DNA of 64,000 nucleotides. It comes from a virus. Taxonomy: Duplodnaviria; Caudoviricetes. The first letter of the stretch is position 1, and each line of letters begins with the position of its first letter. The translations under genes were made by a program, and so were the position numbers. The notes under the pieces were generated by a model. The model searched no databases and was not told the origin of the DNA. It saw only the letters and a program-made list of their open reading frames with translations. Location of the stretch: IMG/VR virus record IMGVR_UViG_3300026159_000398; one strand, 5' to 3'. Positions 8,028-38,842 of the stretch are shown here, piece by piece.

Positions 8028-8549
8028 TTACTTCTCTTCGATGAGTTCATACAGAACATTCATCAATTCTGGAGTAATAAGACCAGTGTCTGGGAGCCAC
8101 TCAAGCTTGATCTTATAGAGATTGTCGATTGCAATTTCTTTTGAAAGAACTTGACGTTCTTTGAGAATTTGCTCCTTTCTAAATTCAAAAACATCATTAA
8201 ATTCTTTTGAAAGTTCTTGAATTTTTTCGTTGAACTCGTCGCGCTTGTCAACAAAAATCTTAAAGTTGTTGTTCTCGATGACTGCTTTTCCGTCGGCGTC
8301 TTTTTCGGAAAACTCAGTGCATATTTCCATACGCTTTGCTTCGTATGCAGCATTTCTGTCTTCGAGTTCTTTTGAGGGTTTTGTTTCTGCTAAGAGTTGT
8401 TCGCGGAGACGATTGATTTCAGGCTCAATTATGTCTTTATTGCGCTTAAGCGCATAAAGAAGCTTGGAATTAATCGTCGTTTCTTGTGATTGCTGATAAA
8501 AAATAACATTCAGCAAATTGTTGAGTTGAAATAACTGTTCGTTTATCAT
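8028..8549 (-). CDS. Hypothetical coiled-coil phage protein
   Basis: Strong AGGAG RBS and an upstream TAATATAATT motif. Confidence 0.7.
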   Translation of the reverse strand: MINEQLFQLNNLLNVIFYQQSQETTINSKLLYALKRNKDIIEPEINRLREQLLAETKPSKELEDRNAAYEAKRMEICTEFSEKDADGKAVIENNNFKIFVDKRDEFNEKIQELSKEFNDVFEFRKEQILKERQVLSKEIAIDNLYKIKLEWLPDTGLITPELMNVLYELIEEK

Positions 8550-8578
8550 TACTCTCTCCTACATTTTAAATGTTAAAT

Positions 8579-8588
8579 AATTATATTA
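8579..8588 (-). promoter_or_regulatory. TAATATAATT candidate phage promoter
   Basis: Exact motif 30 nt upstream of the start at 8549, just after a terminator. Confidence 0.55.
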
Positions 8589-8598
8589 CGCTCTGCAT

Positions 8599-8627
8599 AA
8601 AAAAACGAGAACCGAAGTTCTCGTTTT
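8599..8627 (-). terminator. Intrinsic terminator with a cUUCGg tetraloop
   Basis: The minus strand reads AAAACGAGAAC-TTCG-GTTCTCGTTTTTTT. Confidence 0.9.
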
Positions 8628-8643
8628 AAATAAGTGTGTACAC

Positions 8644-8769
8644 TTATTTCTTTGGTTCTTTTGGTGGAAGAACTGGATTGCCAGTGTTGCTTGATCCGCC
8701 GCTGCCAGAACCTTTAGTAGCAGTTGTGCCACCAAGATGGCCGTGAAGATCTCCTAATTGTTTACCCAT
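8644..8769 (-). CDS. 41-aa Gly/Ser/Thr-rich peptide (below the ORF-track cutoff)
   Basis: Translates as MGKQLGDLHGHLGGTTATKGSGSGGSSNTGNPVLPPKEPKK*. It has a strong TAGGAGG RBS 7 nt upstream and is followed directly by a terminator. Confidence 0.75.
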   Translation of the reverse strand: MGKQLGDLHGHLGGTTATKGSGSGGSSNTGNPVLPPKEPKK

Positions 8770-8798
8770 TTCTAGGCCTCCTAATATATTTTGTAAGC

Positions 8799-9602
8799 TT
8801 ACACGATATCGTCTTTTCTGTTAGATGGCATTAAACATGAAATGCCAATTGATTGTTTGATGACTCTTTCGATTCTTTCATCAATTTCCATTGCTTTAAG
8901 ATTAGTTTCAATCGCGACATCCCTTGCATTAGCAAAAATGTCTTCAAATATATCTTTTATTTTATGATCAACATCATGGAAGGTATTTTTAAGTTCATCC
9001 AATGAAATAAAAGAATCATAAAAATAATTATCTGAAATGTATTCCAGAAATTGAGAAACAATATAATTAAATTTTTCGTCGCAATAATCATCAAATTCAC
9101 GTTCGTTCATTCTTTCGAATCCATTATCTATGAACGCTGAACGTAAAGTTGTTCTTATGTTATTTTGAACATCCTTCAATATCAATCTATATATCTGGAC
9201 ACTTTTATCATCTGGTAAACTATCACCTTTCTTCTTGTTGTAAAGATCAATGTAGTTTTTTAATAACATTGAACGAATTTGTTCAACTTTTTGGTCAGCA
9301 TAATTCATCTGACTTTTTGTTTTTGCTTTCTCTATTAAATGGAATCTCTCATTTGTCAATCGTACCACTTCATTCATCATTATCAAAACGTCCTTGACGT
9401 TTGGACATTCTGAGTGAGGGTTAATTGATGTCTTTTTTTTACCCTTAGAAGAACCAATATGAACTCCATAACCGTCTTTTCCTTTTGTGAAAGAAATTCC
9501 CTTGCGCATTGCAAGAATCGCTACCACCAGTACGCACACAAGAAATAGTACTACGAAAAAGACCTGAAAAGGAATTGCTAATGTTGATAACCAGGTGAAC
9601 AT
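8799..9602 (-). CDS. Membrane-anchored hypothetical protein
   Basis: N-terminal hydrophobic helix (residues about 8-31) followed by a helical soluble domain. Confidence 0.7.
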   Translation of the reverse strand: MFTWLSTLAIPFQVFFVVLFLVCVLVVAILAMRKGISFTKGKDGYGVHIGSSKGKKKTSINPHSECPNVKDVLIMMNEVVRLTNERFHLIEKAKTKSQMNYADQKVEQIRSMLLKNYIDLYNKKKGDSLPDDKSVQIYRLILKDVQNNIRTTLRSAFIDNGFERMNEREFDDYCDEKFNYIVSQFLEYISDNYFYDSFISLDELKNTFHDVDHKIKDIFEDIFANARDVAIETNLKAMEIDERIERVIKQSIGISCLMPSNRKDDIV

Positions 9603-9652
9603 AAATATATATTAAATGTCACCCGCAACATGGTTCAATTTTTTTTAATAAA

Positions 9653-9901
9653 TTATTTTGGACGCGGTTGCGCCATGTGCGCCACCGACATCATCGTGGA
9701 TATCATTTCCACTGGCGTGACGTTGCGTGTGATGACGCCGTTGTGTATTTTGCCAACAATATAAAAATCATTCAAGAATTCTTGATTAAATGGAATAATT
9801 CGTTCCACAATAATAGATACCTTTATCTCTGATTTTCCATCTTTAAGTTTCTCAAGAAGCTCATCACATGACTCTTGAACCATAGTCTGAAGTTCATTCA
9901 T
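9653..9901 (-). CDS. Hypothetical protein, last gene of the coupled rSAM-YcaO block
   Basis: ATGA overlap with the ycaO stop; GGAG RBS. Confidence 0.65.
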   Translation of the reverse strand: MNELQTMVQESCDELLEKLKDGKSEIKVSIIVERIIPFNQEFLNDFYIVGKIHNGVITRNVTPVEMISTMMSVAHMAQPRPK

Positions 9902-11229
9902 ATTTGTTCTCCAATTTCAATTCCAATTTTACTAAAATATTTATACCAACCATCAAGAGCCTCAAAACTTTCAATGGAATATGTCAACCAATCTTGTGTG
10001 TTTTTAGGGTCACCAACAAGATTAAATTGCATATGTGCCAATTCACTTATTCCTGGAATAATTATTCTTACTGTTGGAATTCCAATAAATGGTTGAGTAG
10101 CATCAATAACAATTAAATCAGTATTTAATTTTTGACATGAATTTACTAGAGATTGTATAAAACTATCAGTAGTTTTTTCAGGTGCTTTATACCCTTTAGA
10201 CATGGCCATAAATCTCTGAATATCTGTTAAATCACCCATGAAGCATTGGAAATTTGAACTCCAAAGATCTTTAGTTTTGCGCCATTCTTCACGAGGCAAC
10301 ACTCTATGATTTTGCATATCTACAACGTGGTTTTCCCAACCTTGAAAATATTCTGTAATACATCTCGTTGCCGCGATATTCATATTTGGAGATGCACCAA
10401 AAACAATTTGTCTTCTGCTAACTCGTGTTTCAGGTTCACGAATAGCTTCAAAAATACCAGCAATTACTGGAATAGTACCATTATCGGAATAATCTTTTAA
10501 AGTAACTTTTATTCCTTCTTTTTCAACATTCTCAATAAGTTGCTGAACAAAACTATCAAGACATCTCTTATCAAGTGTTGGAACTTCAATATTGCCAGCT
10601 AAAAGATTTCTTACAGCATAACGTTCAAAACATTCGCTGGCACCTTGAATAATAGCATCTTCAATATTTATGCCAGCAGAAAGTCCACTTGAACCGTTAA
10701 TAATAGACACCAATTGATACGGAACCATGACTTCTTCATTGGTCACAAGAGAAAAACCCTTTATCCAATGTTTAGCAACATTGGTGTTCTTTATTCTTTC
10801 TATATCGTCGTATGAATGTTGAATTTTTGAAAAAATAGATTCAACCGTTACTGGATTTCTTACTTCACTTTGATGCCCATAAAAATAAGCAGTCTGAAGA
10901 TGTTTTCCTCGTGAAGCGGCATGAAGCAGGAATGGAGTTAAATGCGTGGCGCGCATCGTGGTTCCAATTGATGTCTGAAGTCGTTCACATGCTTCTCCCA
11001 TAGCAGAAGCCAATGAAGATTCTGGTGTCGTTCCTTTGCCATTAACACCCATTCCCATTGATGGAAATTTAATAGAACAATAATACGTAGGAACATTTTG
11101 ATAACGAACAGGTTGCACTATCGTATAATCAATGCCAGATTTATCAAGTGCATCCTTCAAAATTATCAATGATTCTTCAATACCAACACTCTTATCAAAT
11201 TCATTCAACACTCTATTCACTAATTTCAT
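9898..11229 (-). CDS. ycaO: YcaO-family ATP-dependent amide-activating enzyme (stand-alone)
   Basis: NGKGTTPESSLASAMGEACER, SSGLSAG..EDAIIQGASECFER, RCITEYFQ and VRIIIPG are the YcaO ATP-binding motifs. Confidence 0.88.
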   Translation of the reverse strand: MKLVNRVLNEFDKSVGIEESLIILKDALDKSGIDYTIVQPVRYQNVPTYYCSIKFPSMGMGVNGKGTTPESSLASAMGEACERLQTSIGTTMRATHLTPFLLHAASRGKHLQTAYFYGHQSEVRNPVTVESIFSKIQHSYDDIERIKNTNVAKHWIKGFSLVTNEEVMVPYQLVSIINGSSGLSAGINIEDAIIQGASECFERYAVRNLLAGNIEVPTLDKRCLDSFVQQLIENVEKEGIKVTLKDYSDNGTIPVIAGIFEAIREPETRVSRRQIVFGASPNMNIAATRCITEYFQGWENHVVDMQNHRVLPREEWRKTKDLWSSNFQCFMGDLTDIQRFMAMSKGYKAPEKTTDSFIQSLVNSCQKLNTDLIVIDATQPFIGIPTVRIIIPGISELAHMQFNLVGDPKNTQDWLTYSIESFEALDGWYKYFSKIGIEIGEQI

Positions 11230-11648
11230 TCAATATCCCACCCATTTTCTACAGGCAAATTGCCATTTATTTTTAAACATTCGATAATATATCTTTCAAT
11301 ATTTGAATCAACAGATTTGCAATTAGAATAAAACTTCTTATTTGGAACTTCTATTTTAGGAAGTTTTTCTTGAACACGCATCCATGTTGTTGGGTCATTG
11401 ATATTAAACAAAGAATCGTTTTTCATTAAATTTTCTACATTCTCTTTTGTATAAGCGAATGAAGGGTCAATCACGAAACTTAATGAATCATCAAGACGGA
11501 CTTCCATCAAATCGGTTTTTATTGTCTTATTATCATGGTACGTATGTGTCAAATACACTTTTACGTACTGAAGCGCATGATCAACCTCAAAACGAGTTAT
11601 TGAATATTCATCAATATTATTGGTGTTTGTTTTCTTTACGTATTTCAT
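11226..11648 (-). CDS. Hypothetical protein in the rSAM-YcaO operon
   Basis: Its stop overlaps the ycaO ATG (ATGA); it starts 13 nt from the end of the Cys-rich gene. Confidence 0.7.
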   Translation of the reverse strand: MKYVKKTNTNNIDEYSITRFEVDHALQYVKVYLTHTYHDNKTIKTDLMEVRLDDSLSFVIDPSFAYTKENVENLMKNDSLFNINDPTTWMRVQEKLPKIEVPNKKFYSNCKSVDSNIERYIIECLKINGNLPVENGWDIE

Positions 11649-11660
11649 AAAATTTTCCTT

Positions 11661-12422
11661 TTAATAAGTTGAACCATGACATAAAACACAATTTATTGCA
11701 TATGAATAACAAGTGGTATTGCATGAACACGAGTGACCATGGCAAGTCGCCGCATCGCATGTTGTACATAATTCTGCTTGACAATGGCATATACCGTTGC
11801 AAGTACAAGTAATAGAGTAACAAGTATTGTTGCAACCACAAAAAGCAGTATAAGTATAAACACCGGCATTATGCCCAGTATTATAACATCCACAACGCCA
11901 ACCATATGTAGTATTATTACATGTGCATGTTTCAGTGTAACATGAGTTATAACAAGTGCAGTTATCACCAGTTGTGCAACTGTCTGCTGAAGTGTGGCAA
12001 TGCGTACACGTTGGCGCCGTATCTCCAGTGTGGCAAGCCCAACATTGTGCTTCAAGACTCAATAAATTGGTGCGAACTTCATTAGCAACACCGTATGCCA
12101 ATTTAGAATCATATTGTGTTACTGATGTCCATGAGAAATTTCCGCCAGTTCCAAGATACGTGTCTTTATAATTGTCTAGTGTGGTTCGAATGCTGTCCAA
12201 CAATGATTTAAGAACAACAGCATATTGTTTATCTGTAGTGCTTTCACCATAATTGCTTCCATACACATAACTAATTTTTTTATCAGCATGCATAGAAGCA
12301 TTATTATATTTCGTCCAATATGCTTTTATTCTATTGATGACACCTTGAACCCAATCGGCACCAACATAAGAATTATATTGTGAAACAGTATTTACTGTTG
12401 TATTGGCAGGGCAATCGCTCAT
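11661..12422 (-). CDS. Cys-rich protein, probable substrate of the rSAM/YcaO enzymes
   Basis: 27 Cys in the last ~127 aa, with repeating CxC(Y/N)xx(C/T)(Y/H) units; TAATG overlap with the rSAM stop. Confidence 0.8.
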   Translation of the reverse strand: MSDCPANTTVNTVSQYNSYVGADWVQGVINRIKAYWTKYNNASMHADKKISYVYGSNYGESTTDKQYAVVLKSLLDSIRTTLDNYKDTYLGTGGNFSWTSVTQYDSKLAYGVANEVRTNLLSLEAQCWACHTGDTAPTCTHCHTSADSCTTGDNCTCYNSCYTETCTCNNTTYGWRCGCYNTGHNAGVYTYTAFCGCNNTCYSITCTCNGICHCQAELCTTCDAATCHGHSCSCNTTCYSYAINCVLCHGSTY

Positions 12423-14059
12423 TATTTATTTTCCCAATATAAGAAGAACATTTCAGCTAAAGATTTTTTCTGCGAATCTTCAAGCTTAATCGTACTCAAT
12501 AATTGATCACGATTAAACGCACCCATATTGCAAATACACGCTTTCATATCTTGTGCATTGGTAATGTTTTTCATTTCTTGATCAACCATTGCTCTAATCA
12601 TCATCATCAATGACAATTGATCTTTCATTTCATCAGTAGCAAGACTGCCATAGAGTTGTCTTCTGACGATATCGTCAATCAAATCAGGAATGCTGGCGTA
12701 ATTAGACATATTACATGCACAATTCATAGCGGCGCCATCGCCATTAAAGGTGGAATAAAATCCTTTAACTCCTAACATACCACTATAATGATAAAGAACA
12801 CCAAATTTTATTGCATTCATAATTTCATAAAAAGCCAATTCATAAAGCAACATTTTAATTTTGCATATTTTTCCATCAATTGTGCCAGTCAATACTCCAT
12901 CATTATCATATTTAACTGCGTAACAACCACCAAGACATAACATTTCAATTGGACAATCTTTACAATGCATGAGTGGTGATTGAGCTCCAAGAAAAGTAGG
13001 AGTCTTAAGATCGTTTAATTCATAATACAATTCTTCATTGGTTATATTTTCAAAGATACTGCCAAGACAGAATTTCTTTTCGTGCCATTCGACATCAAGC
13101 GTATTGTGTTTGTTTGTTCTGTGACAAATATAAATGGCGCCTTCAACACTCACACCCATAAAATTACTGCCAGCTCCACAAGCTCTTCCACTTGGATTAT
13201 TTGGAGTAGGTTTACCTAAAATGCCCCTTTGTAAAACAAAACGACCATTGTCGTCAAGAAACTTAGAACCCAAGAAACGTTCCTTTTTTGCCAATAGTTG
13301 TATACGAAAATCTGCCAATTGCTCCAATTCTTTTTTATAATCTTGAAGATCTTGATCGGTCCAATCGGCATCATAATTTTCAGAAAAGAATATGCTGTCA
13401 AACCCCATCTCATAAAAGGTCTTAATGTTCTCAAACATTCCAATGATATTGCCTGGTGTTGGAGTCATTCGTATGCCAGGAAGGTGCTTGTTAAAATTTT
13501 TATACATTTTAACAACATCTTGCAGTCTCTTTTCAATTATAGGCCATGAAGAACTTCCATCAGGAAAAATACGTTCGCTGTTACGTTCTCCAATACCATC
13601 AATAGATAAAAGAAAATGTATATCTCGTGGAAGCAGCCATGCTAATTTATCTTCATTAAGTAATGTTACGTTGGTTGTTCCACCAAAACGAAATTTCTTT
13701 CCAACTTTATTTGCTTCTTCATCAGCATAAACAACTAATTGTTGAAGCAATTCAAACTTCATTAGTGGTTCACCACCCCAAAAATCAATTACAAGATGTG
13801 AATTCATAGCTTCTAAATCTTTTGGTGCTGGCCCAGATACATCATCACGCAAAAACCAATCAATGACCTGTTTGCCAGTTTCGAATGTTAAATCTTTTGA
13901 GGTGTCTTCTGTTTTGCAGGTATTCTGGTCGAATCCATGGTCGGCAAAACAATATTTGCAACGTAGTGTGCAACGTTCTGTGAGGTCTAAAGAAATAGTT
14001 TGAATTGGAGTTCCCAATTCAACTGGTGATTTGCCTTGTTTTAATTGCTGTGGTTTCAT
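12422..14059 (-). CDS. Radical SAM/SPASM-domain maturase
   Basis: CTLRCKYC (CX3CX2C), DFWGGEPL and LSIDG, plus SPASM motifs CGAG...ICHR and CKDCPIEMLCLGGC...C. Confidence 0.92.
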   Translation of the reverse strand: MKPQQLKQGKSPVELGTPIQTISLDLTERCTLRCKYCFADHGFDQNTCKTEDTSKDLTFETGKQVIDWFLRDDVSGPAPKDLEAMNSHLVIDFWGGEPLMKFELLQQLVVYADEEANKVGKKFRFGGTTNVTLLNEDKLAWLLPRDIHFLLSIDGIGERNSERIFPDGSSSWPIIEKRLQDVVKMYKNFNKHLPGIRMTPTPGNIIGMFENIKTFYEMGFDSIFFSENYDADWTDQDLQDYKKELEQLADFRIQLLAKKERFLGSKFLDDNGRFVLQRGILGKPTPNNPSGRACGAGSNFMGVSVEGAIYICHRTNKHNTLDVEWHEKKFCLGSIFENITNEELYYELNDLKTPTFLGAQSPLMHCKDCPIEMLCLGGCYAVKYDNDGVLTGTIDGKICKIKMLLYELAFYEIMNAIKFGVLYHYSGMLGVKGFYSTFNGDGAAMNCACNMSNYASIPDLIDDIVRRQLYGSLATDEMKDQLSLMMMIRAMVDQEMKNITNAQDMKACICNMGAFNRDQLLSTIKLEDSQKKSLAEMFFLYWENK

Positions 14060-14083
14060 ACTTACTCCTAATATTACTTAGGT

Positions 14084-14093
14084 AATTATATTA
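14084..14093 (-). promoter_or_regulatory. TAATATAATT candidate promoter for the rSAM-YcaO operon
   Basis: Exact motif 25 nt upstream of the rSAM ATG, followed by a TAGGAG RBS. Confidence 0.55.
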
Positions 14094-14096
14094 TGT

Positions 14097-14864
14097 TTAT
14101 ACGAAAATTTTGAGATGATGTTCATGCTTCTCAATGATGACACCAATCAATTTGCTATATTCAATTTCATGTTGGAACATCTCAATACTATCTTTTAAAA
14201 TTCCATCACGAGTAAAATACAATCTTCTGCCTACATGGAATTTTTTGGTATCTTGAACATTGACATCCAATTGACCTTTCATACCAACAAATACTGGATG
14301 CTTGTATTTCTTATTGACTCCAACAATAAAGCCAGGATTCTTCGATACGACGCCTACAAACGCATCAGCAACTCCTTGCCATGCGGTTACTCTAAATGAA
14401 TGATGCATGATATCTACGAATGCCAGATCACCAGGTTTTAATGTGCCATCAGATGGAACTTGTTCAGCAATATCATTCCAAATAGCATTAAAGACGCGGC
14501 CAGAAATAAAGTTAGTTGAAGAGTTTATTGTACTAAAAGTTGATGGAATACCAGTTGAAGTGCCATATTCAAATAGACCCATAATATGGCTAGAAGAGTC
14601 TTGAATAGAAAGTTGTGGAGCTGTTCCACTTCCTTTGATAACACCGGTTGATAATAATAAATCTGAAGTAATAGGGCTGATGAATAATTCAGCACGAGTT
14701 ACGTACTTCTTTCTATTACTATCAGCACTATCTTCGATAAGAATATAATCAGCATCAATTGGTGTTGCTTTATGCGAAAGCGCAACAAATTCTCCTAGTG
14801 CTCCTTTTTGAAAGAAGACGCTAGGGTCGACTGTTGTGAAGAGTATGGCACTGGTATTTTCCAT
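14097..14864 (-). CDS. Short tail-fibre-type protein with a C-terminal intramolecular-chaperone-like domain
   Basis: FNAIWNDIAE...PGD...VGVVSKNPGF...VGMKGQL matches a common fibre C-terminal chaperone pattern. The N-terminal IEDSADS module is shared with the long fibre. Confidence 0.6.
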   Translation of the reverse strand: MENTSAILFTTVDPSVFFQKGALGEFVALSHKATPIDADYILIEDSADSNRKKYVTRAELFISPITSDLLLSTGVIKGSGTAPQLSIQDSSSHIMGLFEYGTSTGIPSTFSTINSSTNFISGRVFNAIWNDIAEQVPSDGTLKPGDLAFVDIMHHSFRVTAWQGVADAFVGVVSKNPGFIVGVNKKYKHPVFVGMKGQLDVNVQDTKKFHVGRRLYFTRDGILKDSIEMFQHEIEYSKLIGVIIEKHEHHLKIFV

Positions 14865-14867
14865 AAA

Positions 14868-16220
14868 TTATTTTTGTTTATTAAGCTCTTGTAAGAACGC
14901 TTTTAAATTTCCGATATACTGTTTTTGTCCAACATGACCAGTAGTCATTGACGAATCTACGTATATCTTTCCACCCAAGTCTCTCCATTTCTTGCAGAAC
15001 ATAATGTCCTCGCTGTATAATTCTCCATCAACGACTCCAATATTGAAGATCATCTTTGATGGAACAGGCTTTTGCGATTCTTTATAGTCTTCTGAACTCT
15101 CATATAGTTTTACAATTGCTTCACGCGAAATACACATGAGACCTGTGCCAACTCCTTCGACTTCAATAATATCAGTCTCGAATTTCGTCTGCGTGGTCTT
15201 CACATTGAATGCAATCTCATCGTTCTTCTTGCGACATGGAGCTGCAATAATTTCTTTTTTTGCGTCAAGTAACTTAAAGATATCTTCAGGATTCCAAAGA
15301 ATATCACTATCAATAAATATCAAATAGTCTGCTTTGGCATCGTAAGCCATCTTGAAAAGATCATTACGCGCTCTTTGGATTAAAGCATCACCACAAAGGA
15401 ATATATGTTGGACTGCAATTCCTTTTTGCGCACCGAGTTGCTTAGTGTTAATCAAACAATCGACGTAATTCGCATGAAGATGCCAATCATGACTTGGAGT
15501 ACCAATAACAACCGTAGTTGATGGCATTCCAAGAATACTCTTAAAAATCTTTTCTTCTTCTTGCAATATACCCTTGTCATACAACTTCAATTCATTAACT
15601 GTTGTAGACTTGGCGTGATAAATAGTCTTATTAGTTATAAAGCCAATAGCGTGCTTTTGATCAAGAATACTTTTATAGATTAAATTATCACCAAAGAAAT
15701 ATTTCAGTTCTTTTGGAATTGGCTTATATTGTTCTTTACGGCCGAACATAAACCATCCTTGGAAATTAAGCACTCCATTTTTATCTGGTTGTCTTGTCCA
15801 TTCAGGCTTCGCTGAATTCTTGACATTAAAATAACCAGAAGCGTCTTCTTTTATAATGTCTTCGGTTTTAACGGTAACCAAATCAACATCATGAGCTGCA
15901 TCTGAATCAAGAACTTTAATGCATGAATCTATGATTGATGGCTCAATAACGATATCATCATTCAAAAGAAGATAATATTCAGTACCACAAATCTCAATGC
16001 CTCTATTCCATGATGGATTTATAAAGAAGTTAGAGTCATTGAAGTAATGAATCTTGTCATTCATCATCCATTCTGGTATTGATTTGTCATCACACTCAGT
16101 ATTGTCAAAGATAAAAATCTCTTCAACATTCTCGTCATCGATACACTTCTGAAGCGTATCTTTTAGAATCTCCACGCTCTTTAAGAGTGTAGGAATTATT
16201 ACAGTTACTCGTCCGCTCAT
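14868..16220 (-). CDS. Two-domain GT-A (GT2-like) glycosyltransferase
   Basis: Domain 1 has VIIPTL, SWNRGI, LLNDD and FFGDN. Domain 2 has ARNDLF, FIDSD, GTGLMCISR and SEDIMFC. Confidence 0.85.
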   Translation of the reverse strand: MSGRVTVIIPTLLKSVEILKDTLQKCIDDENVEEIFIFDNTECDDKSIPEWMMNDKIHYFNDSNFFINPSWNRGIEICGTEYYLLLNDDIVIEPSIIDSCIKVLDSDAAHDVDLVTVKTEDIIKEDASGYFNVKNSAKPEWTRQPDKNGVLNFQGWFMFGRKEQYKPIPKELKYFFGDNLIYKSILDQKHAIGFITNKTIYHAKSTTVNELKLYDKGILQEEEKIFKSILGMPSTTVVIGTPSHDWHLHANYVDCLINTKQLGAQKGIAVQHIFLCGDALIQRARNDLFKMAYDAKADYLIFIDSDILWNPEDIFKLLDAKKEIIAAPCRKKNDEIAFNVKTTQTKFETDIIEVEGVGTGLMCISREAIVKLYESSEDYKESQKPVPSKMIFNIGVVDGELYSEDIMFCKKWRDLGGKIYVDSSMTTGHVGQKQYIGNLKAFLQELNKQK

Positions 16221-16250: not shown

Positions 16251-16260
16251 AATTATATTA
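16251..16260 (-). promoter_or_regulatory. TAATATAATT candidate phage promoter
   Basis: Exact motif overlapping the fibre stop codon, about 30 nt upstream of the glycosyltransferase. Confidence 0.5.
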
Positions 16261-19200
16261 CTTCTTCTTTAATATTTCTATTTCAGTTTTGAGGTCCTCT
16301 ATTTGTTTTGAAAGTTCTTGAACTGCTTTAACCAATGGCAATAAGAGCTTGCCATTTGAAACTTCGAGGCGGTCTGGATTGCTCTCAAGAACCATATTCA
16401 AATAGTCAGCGTCAAAATCCTTTTGTACTTGCTTGATCTCTTGAGCTATGAGACCAACATCCCATGCGTCTGATTTCTTGCTGCCATCAACCACTCCATC
16501 AGGATACCATTCACGACGGTCCCAATGGAACTTGCGAACCTTAACTGCGTTAATGAAGTTCAATCCAAGATCGAAGTCACCAATATCGGCTTTATCTCTC
16601 ATGTCTGAGAGAGCCACAATAGTTTGAGTATTGCAACGAAGTACAGTTACGTTAGCATCACCAAGAGTTATTTCGTTTGTAGCTGTGGCTGCTGAAGCTT
16701 GGGCATTGTAGCCAACAAGAGTTAAGTTACTTCCAGTTGTTATTGTATTTCCGGCTGTATAACCTATAGCAGTATTGTTATTGCCAAATGTATTTGCGCC
16801 TAAAGAACCTCTACCAACGGCAATATTCTGAATGCCTGTTGTATTGGCAATAAGTGCTCCATAACCAACAGCTACGTTACTTGCACCAGTTGTATTTACT
16901 GATAATGCTCCATGGCCAAGAGCAGTATTATAACCTCCAAATGTGTTAGCGGCTAATGTTGAAACACCAATCGCTGTGTTATATTGGCCTGTGGTATTTA
17001 AAGTAAGAGCTAATGTACCAATGGCTGTATTAAATGAAGAAACGTTGGCGTTAAGAGTATTTCTACCAACTGCTGTATTTTGAGTACCAATTACGTTAGC
17101 ACTCAAAGCTCCACTACCAATAGCGGTATTGTATTGACCTGTTGTGTTAAGAGCTAGTGCGTAATAACCAAGAGCTACGTTTCTATCACCTATTGTATTT
17201 GCAGCCAGCGTTTGGTGACCAATGGCAGTATTGTAAACTCCGGTCGTATTAGCAGCCAATGCATTACTGCCAATTGCTACGTTCTGTGTACCAATCGAGT
17301 TAGCAGTAAGAGCATTGTGGCCAATTGCAACATTATCAATACCCGTGATATTCGCATAAAGTGCTTGAAAACCAATTGCTATATTTTGGCGTCCAAATGT
17401 ATTAGTATCAAGAGTTCTATAGCCAATAGCTACATTATCATTACCAGTTCTGTTGTTCACGAGAGCTCGATATCCGAGTGCCAGATTTCTGTTTCCGAAT
17501 GTATTAGCACCTAAAGCATCTCGGCCAATGGCGAAGTTATCGGCTCCTGTTGTGTTAACTGAAAGGGCTTGATAACCAATAGCGATTAAGCTTCCAACTG
17601 TTGAAGCTGCGGCAGCAGCAAAACCTATTGCTACACTATAATTTCCTGTTACACTGGCTGTTAAAGCGTTGTAGCCAATAGCAACATTACTTGCACCGAA
17701 TGTATTAGCATCGAGGGCATAACTTCCAATAGCAATGTTGTAAGCACCGGTTGTATTCGCATTTAGCGCATTATTACCAATGGCTACGTTATCAGTTCCA
17801 ATTGTATTAACACCAAGAGTATTGGAACCAATAGCAACATTACTTACTCCTGTTGTATTGGCATCGAGAGCTTGATGACCAATGGCGATGTTATCGGTTC
17901 CAAAAGTATTGGCAATAAGAGCACTAGAACCTATTGCAACATTATATTGTCCTGTTGTATTTGCAGAAAGAGCACTCCATCCAATGCCAACATTAAAACT
18001 TGAAACGGTATTATTGAGAGTCAAATAACCAATAGCTACGTTTTGTGCACCAGTAAGATTGTTTGTTAAAGCGGATCTTCCAATAGCGACGTTAACATTA
18101 CCCCATGTATTTTTGCCACATGCATCATATCCGATAGCAACATTATGAGAACCTGTTGTATTGTCATAAAGTGCGTAACTTCCAATAGCAGTATTGTAAG
18201 CACCAATTGTATTGGCACTCAATGTGTTAGCACCAACCGCAGTATTATCCCCGCCAGTTGTATTCAAAGTAAGAGATAGATAACCAACAGCTGTGTTTCC
18301 TTGGCCTGTTGTATTGGCTTTAAGCGCTTGATAACCAACTGCAGTCCACCAGCCGTTCGCCATATTAGCAACGTTTAACGCTTCATGACCGATAGCCACG
18401 TTTCCTGAACCAGAAACATTTGCACCTAAAGTATTATATCCAATAGCGACGTTATCAACACCGATTGTATTTGCTTGAAGTGCAGCCCAGCCAACAGCGA
18501 CGTTGTTGTTGCCTGTTGTATTGCTCCAAAGTGCACTAACTCCAATGGCTACGTTATAAACTCCGAATGTATTGAAATACATTGCATTGGCGCCAACGGC
18601 TGTATTTGAATAACCTGTTGTAGTTGAATATAATGCTTGATAGCCAATAGCGGTATTCCAGCTAGTTGTGTTCGTATAAAGAGCTTGATGGCCAATGGCG
18701 GTATTGTTAACACCGATTAAATTTGTATAAAGTGCTCGATAACCAACAGCAATATTGTTTTCACCTGTTGTATTGGCATTTAATGCATAAGCTCCAACAG
18801 CGGTATTATAACGAGCGATTGTGTTGTTTGTTAATGCCCCAGCACCAATGGCTGTATTGTTTGTTCCGGTTGAGTTGGTTCCAAGTGCAGCAGCACCGAA
18901 GGCCGTGTTTCTATCACCTATATCGTTATTATAAAGTGCTAAATATCCAACAGCAGTATTTCTTACTCCAGTTGTGTTGCTTGTTAAAGCACTGTTTCCG
19001 ATTGCTGTATTGAAAGCACCAATTGTATTTGTTTGAAGTGAAGCATATCCAACCGCAGTATTACTTGCGCCAGTTGTGTTGCTTAATAAAGTATTGCTTC
19101 CAACACCAACGTTATAGTTTCCAAAAGTATTGGCACTTAATGCATTATTACCAATACCAACATTCTGAATACCTGTTGTATTGGCATCAAGTGCGGCATT

Positions 19201-22200
19201 TCCAATTGCTAAGTTGGCCACACCAGTAGTATTAAGTGTAAGTGCATTGTAGCCAATAGCAATGTTATAATGTCCAAATGTATTGCTATAAAGAGCTTGC
19301 CATCCAACAGCTACGTTATGATTTCCAGTTATGTTGTTAAACATTGCTTCGTTGCCAATTGCAACGTTATCATAACCATAAGTATTGGATGACATTGCGT
19401 TATAACCAACAGCTGTATTTTGAAAACCAGATACGTTTGCAGCTAAAGTACCAAGGCCGATTGCTGTGTTATAATTACCTGTTACATTGTTGCCTAAAGC
19501 GTTGTAACCTAAAGCAGTATTGTAATTTCCAAATGTATTGTTATGAAGCGCATAATAACCAACGGCTGTATTTTGTGCACCGGTTGTATTGACCAATAAT
19601 GCTTGAGAACCCAATGCTGTATTGCTTGCAATGTCTCCAGCACCCAAACCAATTGTGAGCGAATGAACGGTAAGATCATTTGCAATTGGCTCTAAGAAAA
19701 TTGATGCACGAGTTACTCTCTTCTTATTCCAAGAATCTGCGCTATCTTCAATAATGAATTCATCAAGATCAACTACTGGTGTTTTAGCATCTACGACGTG
19801 AATTTCATTTGGCACATTTGTATGAAGAGCGTAAATGTCTGTAATTGTTGTTGCTAATTCAGACGCGCGATATGGAAGAACGTGAATCGTATTTGCATCT
19901 TCAACAAACAATACTGGATTGCTGAATCCTGTTTCTGGTTCTGTCGCAGTCAAAACACCAGCAGAAGTCGTGCTTACGAAGTAGAATGTTTCAACTGTCA
20001 ATCCATGAGCTGTTATTGTGAATCGACCAGACTGAGCAGCAACAAAGCTATCAAGACCAGTTACTTCTGTAATAACATGAGTAGCCAACGTTAATGAGTT
20101 GTCTGCTAATGCCGCTTTCCAGATACCTGCATCAAAATAGATTGGTGTGAGTACTGTGAATCCATGACCAGTTTGAGCAACAGTAAACGTTGTGCCGGCG
20201 CTTCCACCAGATACTAAATCATCAAGTGTATCAAGAGCTTTTTGGACTGTGTCATCTGCTACAGACAAATTATTGTTAAAATTATCTGTATTAACTGAAA
20301 TACTTGAAGCACTTGTAGCTCCAAGAATTAAGTTGTCTATTGTATCAAGAGCTTTTTGAACTGTGTCATCTGCCGCAGACAAGTTATTATTGAAGTTACT
20401 TGTATCTGTTGGTATTGTAGAGGCGGTGGGCGATGGGCCTGCGGCTCCAATAACAGTACCAGTAGAAGTTGAAACTCGGATGTTGATAAAAGTAGCATCA
20501 ACAAGCTTGATATGTGTGTTTGTAAAAAGACCCGTCGTATTATATAAGAATGTCAAACGATAGATTGGCACAATTTCTTGAATAGCAAGAGCAGCTAAAC
20601 CAGATAGATTATTAAATGACCATCCAGATTCAGAAAGTGTTGTTGTTAAATTAGAACCCACAGATTGCGATTGACCCATAATCGCAATCAATGGTTGGCT
20701 CGTCATGTTTGTTGCACAAAGATATACACAATAGTATCTGTTGGCGGTCATATTGCTCCAACCGCCAGTTGGGTTATTATATTGTGCCGTCATTGAAGCA
20801 ATTGTAGATGCATCTACAGCGGCTCCACCACTTACACCAAGAAAGTCAGTAGTCGGATTTAATCTTCTCCAAGTATAAACTCCACCAACATAACTATCAA
20901 TGTAGAATATTGGAATGCGAGCACCAATTACTATGGCATCTCCTGATACCATTCCAGCTACTGTTGCAACCGTGAAAGATGTACCTGTTCCACCAGCTGA
21001 AATTGTTGTTGTACCACGAACAATAGTAGTGTTTCCTTGCATAACTGTGACAGCTTGTCCAGTCACAAGTGTGTGTGATGTTGAAAATACTATGGTTGTG
21101 TCGTTGGTTCCTACTGTTGCTAATGCCGTAAAACCAAGGAATTGTTCTACCGTAAGAGCCCAATCTGTATATGGAGCTGCAGTTGTAGAAGCTATTGAAG
21201 CGTCAGTGTGGACAATCGCATTACGTATATCTTCATCAAAAAATGAGCCGCTAGAAATTTGAACTTGAGCACGTCCAAAGTTGTCGTTTGTATTTCCCGA
21301 AAGATTAGTAAGTCCATTGTATTGATTGAAAATAAAACCACTATTGTAAACAGCACCTTGCGCGTGGTTTCTTGCGTGTTGGAAAATATCACGGCCTGCG
21401 GTGTGACGTTCTTCACCAATCCATGTGATATTGGTTGTTACTGAATTATAACGAAAATTCCACAAGAGAACATCAGGACTATAAATATCCCAAGGAATTT
21501 GTGTTAATACAAGAACTGGAGTAGCAACATCAGTTGTTGTTTTATCGATATATAAGAACCATAGACCTTCAGCGGCAGTTGCACTTATTGTATATGCTGA
21601 AATATTTCCAGCAGTAACGGTAAATTTCTTTCCATTAATGTAGTAACTAAAAGAGGTGTTTGCCCCAACAAATGAAATTGTAGCTACAATATCAGGAGCA
21701 GAATATGTAATAGCAACTTTAAATTTTCCGCGTTCACTCCATGGAACACCAGTTGCTAATTTAGTGTCAAGGCCGTAATTAACAAAGTTTCTATTTAAAG
21801 AACTGATTGTCACATCAGTAAAAGAAGGAGAATCAGTTGTGTTGATTGCTTGATCTGAATGGTAGAATGATGATGTGTCAACATCGCCACCTTGGAGTCC
21901 TGATAAACCATTGTGAATAGTTATACCAGAGAAAACCATTGTTGTTGCAGTATCTATCTTTGATGCTGTTGAAGCACCAGTTGCTACAATAATACGTCCA
22001 ACCAACATGCTGAAAGTTGTAAACAATGCTGGCAAGTTAGAAGGTGGAGTACTTGCTGCGGCATCTGCCAACGTTCCATAAGCGCTTGTTCCAAGAACAA
22101 CCAAAGTTTGTAAAGAGTTTTGAGTAAGAACACGGTAAATCCAGTTGACAGCGTATTTATTTGGCGTCAGAGCAACAAGATTTGTTCCGTTGTCGTATTG

Positions 22201-23928
22201 TGAATTATTATATTGTGTAATAGTGGTTGATGTCCATACCCCGGCTGAGTGGTAGTACAAAGTCATTTCTTGACCACCGACATCAGACTTAATGGCATCC
22301 AATGTTACATTAGCGGCTCCATACCATACTTTACCCGATGAGATGTTGACAACACGAGTTGCGCTTTCTGTGATAATTAAACTATTTGGTTCTGCATGGA
22401 AGCGGTCTGTTTTAACCAATCGATGTGAGAGTTTGTTTGAGAGGCCTTGAGCCATCAAATCCCACATGAGATAATAGATTGTGCCACCATTATTGAAAAC
22501 AGTCACAATAGGAATTACGTTACTTTGATTGATTGGAGTAACGTCCGTAATCATCTCTACAATAGGATTTCCACTATTGTAGTTGGCTACGATGTAGCTC
22601 GTAACTCCAGAAGTCGGATTAAATGTTCCACCTGCAATTTTGTATCTATTCAGCGATGGGCTGTAATATGTGTCATCATCGTAAAGAAGATATTCACCAG
22701 TTCCAACTGTTATAGAACCAGCTCCTGTACTTATTGATGGGCTTATAAAAATACCAGCACTATCATAGAACACGTAATCTGGCATTTCTTCGACAGAATC
22801 GAAGTATGGGTGCATTACCCCTTCATCTGCTCCCACTTCTATAGCGGCAAAACCAATGTACACACAGTGGTCACGAAGAATTAAGGGCGGTTCAGGAGGA
22901 AGTTCTTGGTGACATTCATCTTCATTGTAGTGTTGTACAGTTCCAAGAGTATAGAATACTTCTCGAACATCGCCAATACTTCTATAGAAGTAACGATTTA
23001 CCCAACGGTTTGCTGTACCGGCGACGGCATTTGTACCATTGTCGTAAAGAGAATTATCGTAGTATGTTTCATGTGTGTATGTCCACACTCCGCCAACGTG
23101 ATTAACACGTGTAAGAGTATGCGTACTTGAATCAAATGGGTTGACAACTATTGGTGTTACACCGGCATAGACTATCGCACTTGTAACAACAACTGTACGA
23201 TAATGTGGCGAACTTGATTCACTGATAATGAGTCCTTTGTCGATTGAACGTCTGTATGATACAGTGTTGTACGCCCAACGGTGAATTTTGTTTGCAAGTC
23301 CAAGACCAAAAGTATCATCACCAATAGAGTGAATTGTTGAATCTTGTCTCCAACAAACAAAGACGGTAAAAATAGAAGAACCATTGATTAAATATTTATT
23401 GGTTTCTTTGCGGCAAATTGGTGTGCCACCATTGTAATCAACAACAACATACTCTTCTGTATTTTCAGTAAAAGTAAGAGTTACTTCAGGAATTGTAAAT
23501 GCTTTAAGAATTCCAGTATAATCAGCATTAGGATATACAAAAGCTACGAATGAACTTATTGTTGCTGTACCATCATTATTATCTGTAAGTGTAGGTTCGG
23601 TAATTGGACCTGCATCTTGTGGAAAAGTAGAATAAGTATTTACTACACCAGCTTCGGCGTATAATACACCATTCTTTGTCAAGAAATTCAAATTGGTAAT
23701 ATTTGCAGTTGTAATATTGCCAGTCGTAATATTATCAGTTGTGATATTGGCAGTGTCAAGATTGGCAGTTGTGGCGCCAAGTGTAGTTATTGTGGCGCTT
23801 GTGGCTCCAAGAGTTGTTATGTCGGCTTCTAACGCGTTTAATCCAGCAGCAGAAAGATCAAGAGTATCACCGTCTTGAATTTGCTGCTTAAGACCACTGT
23901 TGAGAACTAATGGTTTTCTATCTGCCAT
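16258..23928 (-). CDS. Long tail fibre/adhesin (2556 aa) with a beta-repeat shaft and C-terminal peptidase S74 chaperone
   Basis: About 70 tandem 14-aa repeats N(T/V)A(I/V)GxxALxxNTxG, then LSDMRDK...GLIAQE...LVKAVQEL and a terminal coiled coil. Confidence 0.88.
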   Translation of the reverse strand: MADRKPLVLNSGLKQQIQDGDTLDLSAAGLNALEADITTLGATSATITTLGATTANLDTANITTDNITTGNITTANITNLNFLTKNGVLYAEAGVVNTYSTFPQDAGPITEPTLTDNNDGTATISSFVAFVYPNADYTGILKAFTIPEVTLTFTENTEEYVVVDYNGGTPICRKETNKYLINGSSIFTVFVCWRQDSTIHSIGDDTFGLGLANKIHRWAYNTVSYRRSIDKGLIISESSSPHYRTVVVTSAIVYAGVTPIVVNPFDSSTHTLTRVNHVGGVWTYTHETYYDNSLYDNGTNAVAGTANRWVNRYFYRSIGDVREVFYTLGTVQHYNEDECHQELPPEPPLILRDHCVYIGFAAIEVGADEGVMHPYFDSVEEMPDYVFYDSAGIFISPSISTGAGSITVGTGEYLLYDDDTYYSPSLNRYKIAGGTFNPTSGVTSYIVANYNSGNPIVEMITDVTPINQSNVIPIVTVFNNGGTIYYLMWDLMAQGLSNKLSHRLVKTDRFHAEPNSLIITESATRVVNISSGKVWYGAANVTLDAIKSDVGGQEMTLYYHSAGVWTSTTITQYNNSQYDNGTNLVALTPNKYAVNWIYRVLTQNSLQTLVVLGTSAYGTLADAAASTPPSNLPALFTTFSMLVGRIIVATGASTASKIDTATTMVFSGITIHNGLSGLQGGDVDTSSFYHSDQAINTTDSPSFTDVTISSLNRNFVNYGLDTKLATGVPWSERGKFKVAITYSAPDIVATISFVGANTSFSYYINGKKFTVTAGNISAYTISATAAEGLWFLYIDKTTTDVATPVLVLTQIPWDIYSPDVLLWNFRYNSVTTNITWIGEERHTAGRDIFQHARNHAQGAVYNSGFIFNQYNGLTNLSGNTNDNFGRAQVQISSGSFFDEDIRNAIVHTDASIASTTAAPYTDWALTVEQFLGFTALATVGTNDTTIVFSTSHTLVTGQAVTVMQGNTTIVRGTTTISAGGTGTSFTVATVAGMVSGDAIVIGARIPIFYIDSYVGGVYTWRRLNPTTDFLGVSGGAAVDASTIASMTAQYNNPTGGWSNMTANRYYCVYLCATNMTSQPLIAIMGQSQSVGSNLTTTLSESGWSFNNLSGLAALAIQEIVPIYRLTFLYNTTGLFTNTHIKLVDATFINIRVSTSTGTVIGAAGPSPTASTIPTDTSNFNNNLSAADDTVQKALDTIDNLILGATSASSISVNTDNFNNNLSVADDTVQKALDTLDDLVSGGSAGTTFTVAQTGHGFTVLTPIYFDAGIWKAALADNSLTLATHVITEVTGLDSFVAAQSGRFTITAHGLTVETFYFVSTTSAGVLTATEPETGFSNPVLFVEDANTIHVLPYRASELATTITDIYALHTNVPNEIHVVDAKTPVVDLDEFIIEDSADSWNKKRVTRASIFLEPIANDLTVHSLTIGLGAGDIASNTALGSQALLVNTTGAQNTAVGYYALHNNTFGNYNTALGYNALGNNVTGNYNTAIGLGTLAANVSGFQNTAVGYNAMSSNTYGYDNVAIGNEAMFNNITGNHNVAVGWQALYSNTFGHYNIAIGYNALTLNTTGVANLAIGNAALDANTTGIQNVGIGNNALSANTFGNYNVGVGSNTLLSNTTGASNTAVGYASLQTNTIGAFNTAIGNSALTSNTTGVRNTAVGYLALYNNDIGDRNTAFGAAALGTNSTGTNNTAIGAGALTNNTIARYNTAVGAYALNANTTGENNIAVGYRALYTNLIGVNNTAIGHQALYTNTTSWNTAIGYQALYSTTTGYSNTAVGANAMYFNTFGVYNVAIGVSALWSNTTGNNNVAVGWAALQANTIGVDNVAIGYNTLGANVSGSGNVAIGHEALNVANMANGWWTAVGYQALKANTTGQGNTAVGYLSLTLNTTGGDNTAVGANTLSANTIGAYNTAIGSYALYDNTTGSHNVAIGYDACGKNTWGNVNVAIGRSALTNNLTGAQNVAIGYLTLNNTVSSFNVGIGWSALSANTTGQYNVAIGSSALIANTFGTDNIAIGHQALDANTTGVSNVAIGSNTLGVNTIGTDNVAIGNNALNANTTGAYNIAIGSYALDANTFGASNVAIGYNALTASVTGNYSVAIGFAAAAASTVGSLIAIGYQALSVNTTGADNFAIGRDALGANTFGNRNLALGYRALVNNRTGNDNVAIGYRTLDTNTFGRQNIAIGFQALYANITGIDNVAIGHNALTANSIGTQNVAIGSNALAANTTGVYNTAIGHQTLAANTIGDRNVALGYYALALNTTGQYNTAIGSGALSANVIGTQNTAVGRNTLNANVSSFNTAIGTLALTLNTTGQYNTAIGVSTLAANTFGGYNTALGHGALSVNTTGASNVAVGYGALIANTTGIQNIAVGRGSLGANTFGNNNTAIGYTAGNTITTGSNLTLVGYNAQASAATATNEITLGDANVTVLRCNTQTIVALSDMRDKADIGDFDLGLNFINAVKVRKFHWDRREWYPDGVVDGSKKSDAWDVGLIAQEIKQVQKDFDADYLNMVLESNPDRLEVSNGKLLLPLVKAVQELSKQIEDLKTEIEILKKK
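16700..19630 (-). repeat. Degenerate 42-bp (14-aa) coding repeat array in the tail fibre
   Basis: NTAIGxxALxxNTTG periodicity is visible in both protein and DNA; boundaries are approximate. Confidence 0.9.
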
Positions 23929-38832: not shown

Positions 38833-38842
38833 AATTATATTA
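38833..38842 (-). promoter_or_regulatory. TAATATAATT candidate phage promoter
   Basis: Exact motif about 18 nt upstream of the endonuclease start. Confidence 0.5.

Follow-up and report, generated by a model that had tools for sequence, protein, structure and literature searches.

The window analysed here is a stretch of 64,000 nucleotides (nt) from the phage record IMGVR_UViG_3300026159_000398, a 205-kb IMG/VR virus record that is estimated to be 83% complete and has a G+C content of ~36%. On its minus strand, directly after tail-fibre genes, the window carries a cassette of four genes for a radical S-adenosylmethionine (SAM) enzyme with a SPASM domain, a Cys-repeat protein of 253 amino acids (aa), an orphan protein of 140 aa, and a YcaO protein. 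The identities of the genes, their intact catalytic motifs, the conserved linkage of the cassette and the presence of the Cys repeat on tail proteins are established. We propose that the radical SAM enzyme would staple the repeats of the 253-aa protein, that YcaO would add an ATP-dependent step together with the 140-aa protein, and that the product would remain associated with the short fibre whose gene lies immediately upstream; we put the chances of this combined proposal at about even.

[quoted passage not shown] That suggestion is supported by the linkage of the genes, the lack of a recognisable exporter or peptidase among the ten proteins searched, the fusion of the repeat to tail proteins elsewhere, and the lack of a close bacterial copy.

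Radical SAM/SPASM enzyme

The first gene of the cassette (12422-14059, minus strand) encodes a protein of 545 aa that scored above the cut-offs of both Radical_SAM PF04055 (33.2 vs 29.5 bits) and the SPASM model TIGR04085 (33.7 vs 27 bits). As the YcaO protein likewise passed the cut-off of PF02624, the enzyme identities given in the sequence-only reading were borne out by the profile searches. The best NCBIfam model was that of PapB (1.6e-52; 178.8 bits vs an equivalog cut-off of 340), followed by the SCIFF maturase model (5e-42; 144.3 vs 425 bits), a Nif11-type maturase model (4e-39, below its cut-off), and a QhpD-type model (1.3e-37; 129 vs 453 bits). The best models are those of thioether-forming maturases of Cys-rich substrates. 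An anaerobic sulfatase maturase, which converts Cys to formylglycine, was considered and rejected (45 bits vs 349), and PADLOC yielded generic viperin-core matches and nothing else.

CteB (PDB 5WGG) is the nearest solved structure (2.8e-23). The alignment begins at residue 88 of CteB and residue 11 of the phage enzyme, with the same offset in NCBIfam models that contain a RiPP recognition element (RRE); because of this late start, the phage enzyme lacks the N-terminal, PqqD-like RRE. Judged from these alignments, it is a CteB/PapB-like, RRE-less enzyme. In the eight homologues aligned, the cysteines of the CxxxCxxC motif (C30, C34, and C37) are invariant, as are those of the SPASM domain (C294, C312, C366, C369, C375, C379, and C399). 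All eight also share a C-terminal extension (residues ~416-545; window 12422-12820) with two invariant CxC pairs, C447xC449 and C508xC510, which may serve as an additional site for a metal or cluster, or as an element that mimics the substrate. The first pair is followed by Asn in most homologues and resembles the C-x-C-N repeat of the substrate itself. Both pairs are retained even in the shorter enzymes of two other loci, L008 and L010.

Cys-repeat protein

The presumed substrate (11661-12422, minus strand) contains 28 Cys residues, 27 of which lie in the last 127 residues; the count of 27 in the C-terminal half made by the sequence-only reading is therefore correct. A conserved N-terminal domain (residues ~1-125), modelled by AlphaFold2 as mostly helical at moderate confidence, is followed by a CWACHTGD junction and by 127 residues of repeats rich in Cys, Thr, Asn, and Tyr, ending in an invariant C-terminal Tyr. 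The junction, L-E-A-x-C-W-A-C, is invariant in the alignments of the family. The approximately ten repeats recur every 11-13 residues and follow the consensus x-[SA]-C-[ST]-C-[ND]-x-T-C-Y-G-Y-x; the same consensus was obtained from 49 repeats of the family and from 186 repeats in 17 other carriers. Within each repeat lies [N/D]-x-x-C, the motif that is cross-linked by the streptococcal NxxC enzyme and that is close to the Cys-x3-Asp of PapB substrates.

The mean predicted local distance difference test (pLDDT) score of the model was 49, with values of ~60-80 for the N-terminal domain and below 35 for the repeats. A complex prediction of residues 1-130 with the 140-aa protein gave a score of 0.00, which carries no weight either way. 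The protein had no match in Pfam, NCBIfam, or PHROGs, and its family is small, with 33 matches once it had been extended by profile. An NYKDKxxxxGGDFSW motif is common to the N-terminal domains of the YcaO-bearing sub-clade and missing from the others.

The arrangement of an N-terminal domain and a core is a feature of canonical RiPP precursors, but the protein measures 253 aa with a folded N-terminal domain of ~125 aa, and it matches none of the RiPP precursor family models in Pfam and NCBIfam. A leader-plus-core layout, an invariant junction between the two parts and a core predicted to have no fixed structure would fit a phage RiPP natural product or effector. The N-terminal domain would then be an oversized leader, as in precursors of the proteusin/NHLP type, and the core, modified by the radical SAM enzyme and YcaO and set free upon lysis or within the cell, would act off the virion on competitors, host defence, or host physiology. 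Genes for a membrane protein and a 41-aa peptide are also part of the operon, and bacterial RiPP clusters with a SPASM enzyme are found around some of the nearest bacterial YcaOs, among them one (L102) with a small Cys-containing precursor, an ORF that we read as S8-like, and ABC exporters. As described below, the genomic setting of the repeat in phages makes such a released product rather unlikely.

Cys repeats on tail proteins

A profile of the Cys-rich family found the same repeat of 11-13 residues at the C-termini of long proteins. In one case (L008/9), a repeat protein of 1034 aa is encoded downstream of the tape-measure and other tail-region genes and is followed immediately by a radical SAM enzyme with 33% identity to that of the window; in another (L010), a repeat carrier of 358 aa lies between the radical SAM gene and a holin-like gene. 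PapB is the best model for the enzymes of these loci as well, and they align along the entire length of the window enzyme, including the C-terminal CxC pairs. More generally, the C-x-C-[ND]-x-T-C-Y repeat is widespread, lacks a Pfam match and occurs in up to 26 copies in one protein (L025). Its carriers measure 165 to >2200 aa, and among the domains that accompany it in them are C1q, discoidin (F5/8 type C), PKD, and VWA.

In IMG/VR, 372 relatives of the radical SAM enzyme were found. Eight of the 13 closest loci have Cys-rich or Cys-repeat open reading frames (ORFs) on the same strand within the fetched flanks, directly upstream of the radical SAM gene in three of the eight, and seven proteins from the IMG/VR loci match the profile of the Cys-rich family. 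In addition, L002, L003, L004/5, and L013 encode the last 170 residues of the short fibre directly upstream of the radical SAM gene, with 37-48% identity.

Since in unrelated phages the repeat is fused to the C-termini of tail proteins next to which the same radical SAM family is encoded, a matured structural protein associated with the fibre is favoured over a secreted antibiotic or a decaying host cluster. Against a released core speak a repeat that is covalently part of long tail-region proteins, a fibre domain that travels together with the cassette, and the position of the cassette, which comes right behind a fibre-like gene and, wherever the contig is long enough, closes the tail module. 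Moreover, no leader peptidase, exporter, or immunity gene was recognised with Pfam, NCBIfam, and PHROGs among the ten proteins encoded in and around the operon (8028-16220), as the sequence-only reading had stated. The alternative of an intracellular effector of the phage is weakened but retains some probability.

A different role for the repeats would be that of a structural module that binds metal, in which thiolate ligands would do what the HxH iron sites do in fibre tips of the T4 type, with the radical SAM enzyme and YcaO acting elsewhere or the former only delivering clusters or metal. The spacing is regular (CxC/CxxxC, three Cys per 12 residues) and reminiscent of metallothionein, the radical SAM enzyme itself possesses two extra invariant CxC pairs, and the repeat occurs on fibre-type proteins, a class in which axial metal sites are known from T4 gp37/gp12. 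Yet a radical SAM/SPASM enzyme of the peptide-maturase type stands beside the repeat in every inspected locus that is long enough to show neighbours, and its best matches are enzymes that form thioethers on Cys-rich substrates. Binding of metal would be compatible with the conversion of some of the Cys to thioethers. The reading as a metal-binding module is, in our opinion, improbable.

Conservation of the cassette

The order radical SAM, Cys-rich protein, 140-aa protein, YcaO was found in four other phage-like lineages, with identities of 34-85%. For YcaO, the identity was 85% in L006, 39% in L004/L005, which represent one phage in two samples, 39% in L002, and 34% in L003. The block thus stays linked in other phage-like contigs, as a neighbourhood survey suggested by the sequence-only reading has now shown.

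Several loci have the first two genes without YcaO. In L007, the radical SAM and Cys-rich genes are accompanied by a gene for a protein of 139 aa and followed by a glycosyltransferase-like gene. The pair in L012 is followed by a QueC-like gene, and so is the Cys-rich gene of L011, where what seems to be the C-terminal end of a radical SAM enzyme is located at the edge of the contig. In L013/L014, the pair is present in the end of a prophage in a bacterial assembly, GCA_009885955.1 in the case of L013, after large tail-region ORFs; small ORFs, a weak peptidase C39-like match and then bacterial genes follow. The fibre C-terminal domain, the radical SAM enzyme and the Cys-repeat protein constitute the conserved core, as these three co-occur across loci, and the 140-aa protein and YcaO are, from their distribution, an add-on in one sub-clade. 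Of the unit that was originally described, the radical SAM enzyme and the Cys-rich protein beside a fibre gene were retained, and the 140-aa protein and YcaO had to be dropped as fixed members in view of the YcaO-less loci.

The QueC-like protein is a PP-loop ATPase (L011, 1496-2095; L012, 3892-4551), the gene of which comes directly after the Cys-rich gene and overlaps it in L012. It may be an alternative ATP-dependent modifier that substitutes for YcaO. In L011, the gene is followed by one for a homologue of a queuosine-precursor transporter, for which reason it may also be part of a distinct deazaguanine module.

YcaO and the 140-aa protein

The YcaO protein (443 aa; 9898-11229, minus strand) matches PF02624 with 159.5 bits (cut-off 25.7; 1.7e-46) over profile positions 1-324 of 325. 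It is a short form without the C-terminal domain or a Pro-rich tail, and it ends with ...KIGIEIGEQI, ~50 residues after the PGIS motif. Its best solved and characterised relative is E. coli YcaO (PDB 4Q84). Residues S75, E79, E82, R83, E199, E202, R203, R289, and E293 are invariant. S71, E75, E78, E199, E202, R203, R286, and E290 are the residues that we take to form the ATP/Mg site of E. coli YcaO, and the residues aligned with that site in the phage protein (S75, E79, E82, E199, E202, R203, R289, and E293) are all present and do not vary among the homologues from phages and bacteria. The scores were 98.8 bits (cut-off 700) for the E. coli-type equivalog NF040716, 78.7 bits (cut-off 219) for the azoline-type model TIGR03604, and 75.1 bits (cut-off 365) for TIGR03266, which describes the thioamidation of McrA glycine. 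Thioamidation independent of TfuA may be catalysed by this YcaO, and it may follow the azoline route despite the lack of a dehydrogenase and of a Pro-rich tail in the locus.

Searches of IMG/VR with the single YcaO and Cys-rich proteins gave no matches, nor did a YcaO profile scan of the same database; a YcaO profile scan of JGI metagenome contigs returned distant YcaOs of the bacterial type only. The INPHARED phages had no match to the locus by megablast, and one YcaO outside the cassette, which is of the E. coli type and belongs to the record of an Escherichia phage.

The 140-aa protein (11226-11648, minus strand), the stop codon of which overlaps the start of the YcaO gene, belongs to a family with five proteins among 5.8 billion clusters, all of them in this cassette. 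The sequence-only reading had called YcaO "stand-alone"; this does not hold for the layout of the locus, in which YcaO is translationally coupled to a protein that is specific to the cassette. The 140-aa protein was modelled with a pLDDT of 89. Comparison of its fold with the PDB by Foldseek (best E value, 0.025) and a wide search with VIA-align (best Z score, 4.1) revealed no convincing match, and the ESM Atlas had none by shape or features; as a consequence, the protein could not be assigned as an RRE, TfuA, or E1-like protein. It is a candidate adaptor or partner protein.

YcaO could instead act on another target, such as the 41-aa peptide or the 82-aa protein encoded further downstream, or a host protein, e.g., ribosomal protein S12 as a means of host take-over, in which case its place in the operon would be incidental. 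Its closest characterised relative is an accessory factor of RimO, it is devoid of the features of azoline-forming YcaOs, and the radical SAM/Cys-repeat pair occurs without YcaO in most phages; the 82-aa gene, moreover, is coupled to that of YcaO and is under strong purifying selection. However, in all four or five lineages YcaO comes after the Cys-rich and 140-aa proteins, whereas the 82-aa and 41-aa genes are confined to the closest relative, and phage YcaOs outside the cassette amount to none in IMG/VR and the single INPHARED copy. We regard a separate target of YcaO as improbable.

Transcription unit and downstream genes

The region 8599-14093 (minus strand) is read as one transcription unit, opened by a promoter-like TAATATAAT and closed by an intrinsic terminator. 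The ORFs and their coordinates are all as the sequence-only reading gave them. The promoter-like motif of the operon, TAATATAAT at 14085-14093 (minus strand), lies 26-34 nt upstream of the start of the radical SAM gene and is over-represented: the window has nine copies where 1.6 are expected, a number reached in none of 100 shuffles. The copies start at 1630, 8580, 14085, 16252, 38834, 58001, 58084, 62920, and 62948, and those that were checked (16252-16260, 8580-8588, 38834-38842, and 1630-1638) are situated ~20-60 nt upstream of ORF starts. TAATATAAT is probably a promoter element of the phage, judging by its number and placement.

According to the coordinates, the radical SAM and Cys-rich genes overlap by 1 nt, and overlaps of 4 nt join the 140-aa gene to that of YcaO and the YcaO gene to the 82-aa gene. 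The overlaps described by the sequence-only reading are real; the gap between the Cys-rich and 140-aa genes had been given as 13 nt and is 12 nt. The first clear intrinsic terminator, AAAACGAGAAC-TTCG-GTTCTCGTTTT with a T run, is found past the 41-aa ORF at 8627-8599 (minus strand); it has an 11-bp stem, which is kept in L006, and the next TAATATAAT follows at 8580-8588. A membrane protein and the 41-aa peptide would accordingly share the transcript, as had been surmised.

Three genes complete the operon on the minus strand. The first (9653-9901), coupled to YcaO, encodes the 82-aa protein, for which no family match was found; it is 96% identical in L006, where YcaO is 85% identical, and the two genes differ by 27 synonymous and three non-synonymous codon changes. 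In L002 and L003, the place after YcaO is taken instead by another radical SAM gene, which matches PF04055 and, at borderline level, DUF512. The second (8799-9602) encodes a co-transcribed 267-aa protein with an N-terminal transmembrane segment, which is without a family match in Pfam, NCBIfam, and PHROGs and is 88% identical in L006, the sole relative with a copy. The third is a Gly/Ser/Thr-rich ORF of 41 aa (8644-8769) without Cys, which has a strong AGGAGG ribosome-binding site and is located just ahead of the terminator; with respect to L006, it shows seven synonymous and two non-synonymous codon changes. The predominance of synonymous changes indicates that the 82-aa and 41-aa ORFs are real genes. 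The 41-aa peptide could be a second small substrate. As all three genes were seen only in the closest relative, L006, they fall outside the conserved unit.

Upstream fibre genes

The operon directly follows tail-fibre genes, as the sequence-only reading had it: both the 2556-aa and the 255-aa protein encoded upstream are of the fibre type. The 2556-aa protein (16258-23928, minus strand) matches PHROGs annotated as tail spike protein and virion structural protein and contains repeats of the type NTA[VI]G[YH]xAL in a very long series. The short fibre-like protein of 255 aa (14097-14864, minus strand) has no Cys, and its neighbours in the Atlas are clusters of phage fibre-type proteins. Its residues 8-76, in the N-terminal part, match a segment of 69 residues of the large fibre (residues 1358-1426; E value, 1e-8), and this segment may, by its recurrence in both sequences, be a common attachment element.

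Between the giant and the short fibre, a protein of 450 aa (14868-16220, minus strand) with two glycosyltransferase-like regions is encoded behind a TAATATAAT of its own (16252-16260). Its N-terminus resembles family 2 glycosyltransferases and its C-terminus matches PHROG 1574, which hints at glycosylation of the fibre proteins or of the host surface.

Bacterial relatives, origin, and habitat

The best bacterial YcaO, from a metagenome-assembled genome (MAG) of the Spirochaetota, is 32% identical to that of the phage, and the bacterial relatives found are long forms of the E. coli type (~600 aa); the YcaOs of RiPP clusters with a radical SAM/SPASM enzyme, with 24-32% identity, are among the nearest. 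Neither the Cys-rich nor the 140-aa family was present beside any of eleven bacterial YcaO loci. Three of the eleven (L101, L102, and L107) have SPASM RiPP maturases nearby; because these loci pair the two enzymes, this YcaO clade is considered to stand beside SPASM enzymes in bacteria as well. L102 (222-10318), from a MAG of the Lachnospiraceae, encodes a methyltransferase, a radical SAM/SPASM enzyme, a protein of 87 aa, and an ORF of 60 aa that ends in GGNCNCAGA, followed by what we read as a subtilisin-like (S8) ORF, a long YcaO, and two ABC exporters. From its gene content, it reads as a RiPP cluster.

The origin of the phage block in a recently captured, decaying host cluster, a possibility named in the sequence-only reading, was rejected: the catalytic residues do not vary, more codon changes are synonymous than non-synonymous, and no close bacterial copy was found.

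The sampled sequence words of the locus were recovered at 93% in a study of a biogas fermenter and at 66% in one of an anaerobic digester; we regard the virus as a giant phage of anaerobic digesters. An anoxic, reducing habitat would give a rationale for thioethers in place of disulfides and also suits an oxygen-sensitive radical SAM enzyme.

Proposed mode of action

In the mechanism that we propose, the helical N-terminal domain of the 253-aa protein would serve in recognition or assembly. The radical SAM/SPASM enzyme would cross-link the C-[ST]-C-[ND]-x-T-C-Y region by S-to-C thioether bridges, the simplest of which would join Cys to the Asn or Asp located three residues upstream. YcaO, probably with the 140-aa protein, would perform backbone chemistry (azoline or thioamide formation) on the same protein, or aid the radical SAM enzyme in the way that E. 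coli YcaO aids RimO. The product would belong to the upstream-encoded short fibre, or be joined to it, and would stay in the virion, where it might provide a stapled, redox-independent fibre element for anoxic habitats in which disulfides fail. A bolder version, in which the 253-aa protein is a giant RiPP at the fibre tip with a core of ~125 residues that carries many thioether rings as well as azolines or thioamides from a YcaO guided by the 140-aa protein, seems to us possible but doubtful.

A number of points weigh against the proposed maturation of a fibre protein. The chemical steps, the contact with the substrate, the part played by the 140-aa protein, and the location in the virion are all inferred. 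The radical SAM enzyme scores far below every equivalog cut-off. A conserved N-terminal domain with a core of low model confidence would also suit a RiPP precursor with a large leader, and the CxC repeats may bind metal. The cassette with YcaO is known from only four or five lineages, and most loci with the radical SAM/Cys-repeat pair do not have YcaO, which for that reason is best seen as an add-on with a target assigned by position. Lastly, YcaO has no Pro-rich (PxPxP) C-terminus, and no match to E1-like, Ocin-ThiF, or TfuA proteins was obtained among the neighbours in the locus. The YcaO step, whether it yields an azoline or a thioamide or consists in assistance of the kind that E. coli YcaO gives to RimO, is the weakest part of the proposal.

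If the bolder version is right, this would be the first case of YcaO chemistry on a structural protein of a virus and a disulfide-free way of hardening host-binding fibres in anoxic habitats. A virion component matured by dedicated radical SAM and YcaO enzymes would bring RiPP chemistry, so far a matter of small peptides that are secreted, to the structural proteins of viruses. It would add C-[ST]-C-[ND]-x-T-C-Y, present on many phage fibre-type proteins, as a new repeat substrate, and it suggests a way in which phages that infect strict anaerobes could make their receptor-binding structures robust where disulfides cannot form. The compact four-gene system would offer a means to study how a YcaO without an E1-like or TfuA partner and a radical SAM enzyme without an RRE recognise a protein substrate, and cross-linked fibre modules may serve in the engineering of stable binding proteins.

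Comparison with known systems

The closest parallels are CteB, which acts on SCIFF/thermocellin, and PapB, which acts on freyrasin. Like the phage enzyme, both are radical SAM/SPASM enzymes with a CxxxCxxC motif and an auxiliary-cluster domain with seven Cys, and their substrates, encoded next to them, are rich in Cys with Asp, Asn, or Thr near each Cys. Unlike CteB, the phage enzyme lacks an N-terminal RRE and possesses an additional C-terminal domain with two CxC pairs. The substrate differs from those of CteB and PapB in being a protein of 253 aa with about ten repeats and not a peptide of ~50 aa, and the locus in that it is part of a tail module with no recognised protease or exporter. QhpD, also a radical SAM/SPASM enzyme, introduces several Cys-to-Asp/Glu thioether bridges inside a protein subunit that remains in a complex, i.e., QhpC, the gamma subunit of quinohemoprotein amine dehydrogenase; its dehydrogenase context and the repeat architecture of the phage protein set the two systems apart. 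NxxcB (NxxC) makes a Cys-to-Asn beta-thioether in a short streptococcal peptide that is regulated by quorum sensing; the [N/D]-x-x-C motif in the substrate is shared with the phage.

E. coli YcaO (4Q84) aids the radical SAM methylthiotransferase RimO in forming an S-C bond at the Asp beta-carbon. It resembles the phage protein in the conserved ATP/Mg-site residues and in working with a radical SAM enzyme, but with ~586 aa it has a C-terminal domain of ~160 aa that is missing from the phage protein, the partner of which is of the SPASM type and not a methylthiotransferase. Azoline-, thioamide-, and amidine-forming YcaOs (LynD/TruD, Mj-YcaO with TfuA, and BotC/BotCD) have the YcaO domain and a substrate rich in Cys, Ser, and Thr in common with the phage system. 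The phage locus differs from them in the lack of PxPxP, of E1-like, Ocin-ThiF, or TfuA proteins, and of an azoline dehydrogenase, and the matches are weaker than that to E. coli YcaO. Clusters of the L102 type combine the same YcaO and radical SAM/SPASM families with a Cys-containing precursor; this precursor is small, however, and is accompanied by an ORF read as subtilisin-like and by ABC exporters, with no phage context and no member of the 140-aa or N-terminal domain family.

A virion part hardened by cross-links or ligands is also found in the isopeptide chainmail of HK97 and in the HxH iron sites of T4 gp37/gp12. The chainmail is autocatalytic and the T4 sites are metal-mediated; we know of no dedicated radical or ATP-dependent maturase in either system, and to our knowledge covalent stabilisation of phage particles is autocatalytic or metal-mediated in all known cases. 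In the literature, searched as full text, no description was found of a phage YcaO in such a cassette or of the maturation of phage fibre proteins by a radical SAM enzyme. The enzyme families of the phage cassette are known ones; what is new is the type of substrate, the setting, and the partner protein of 140 aa.

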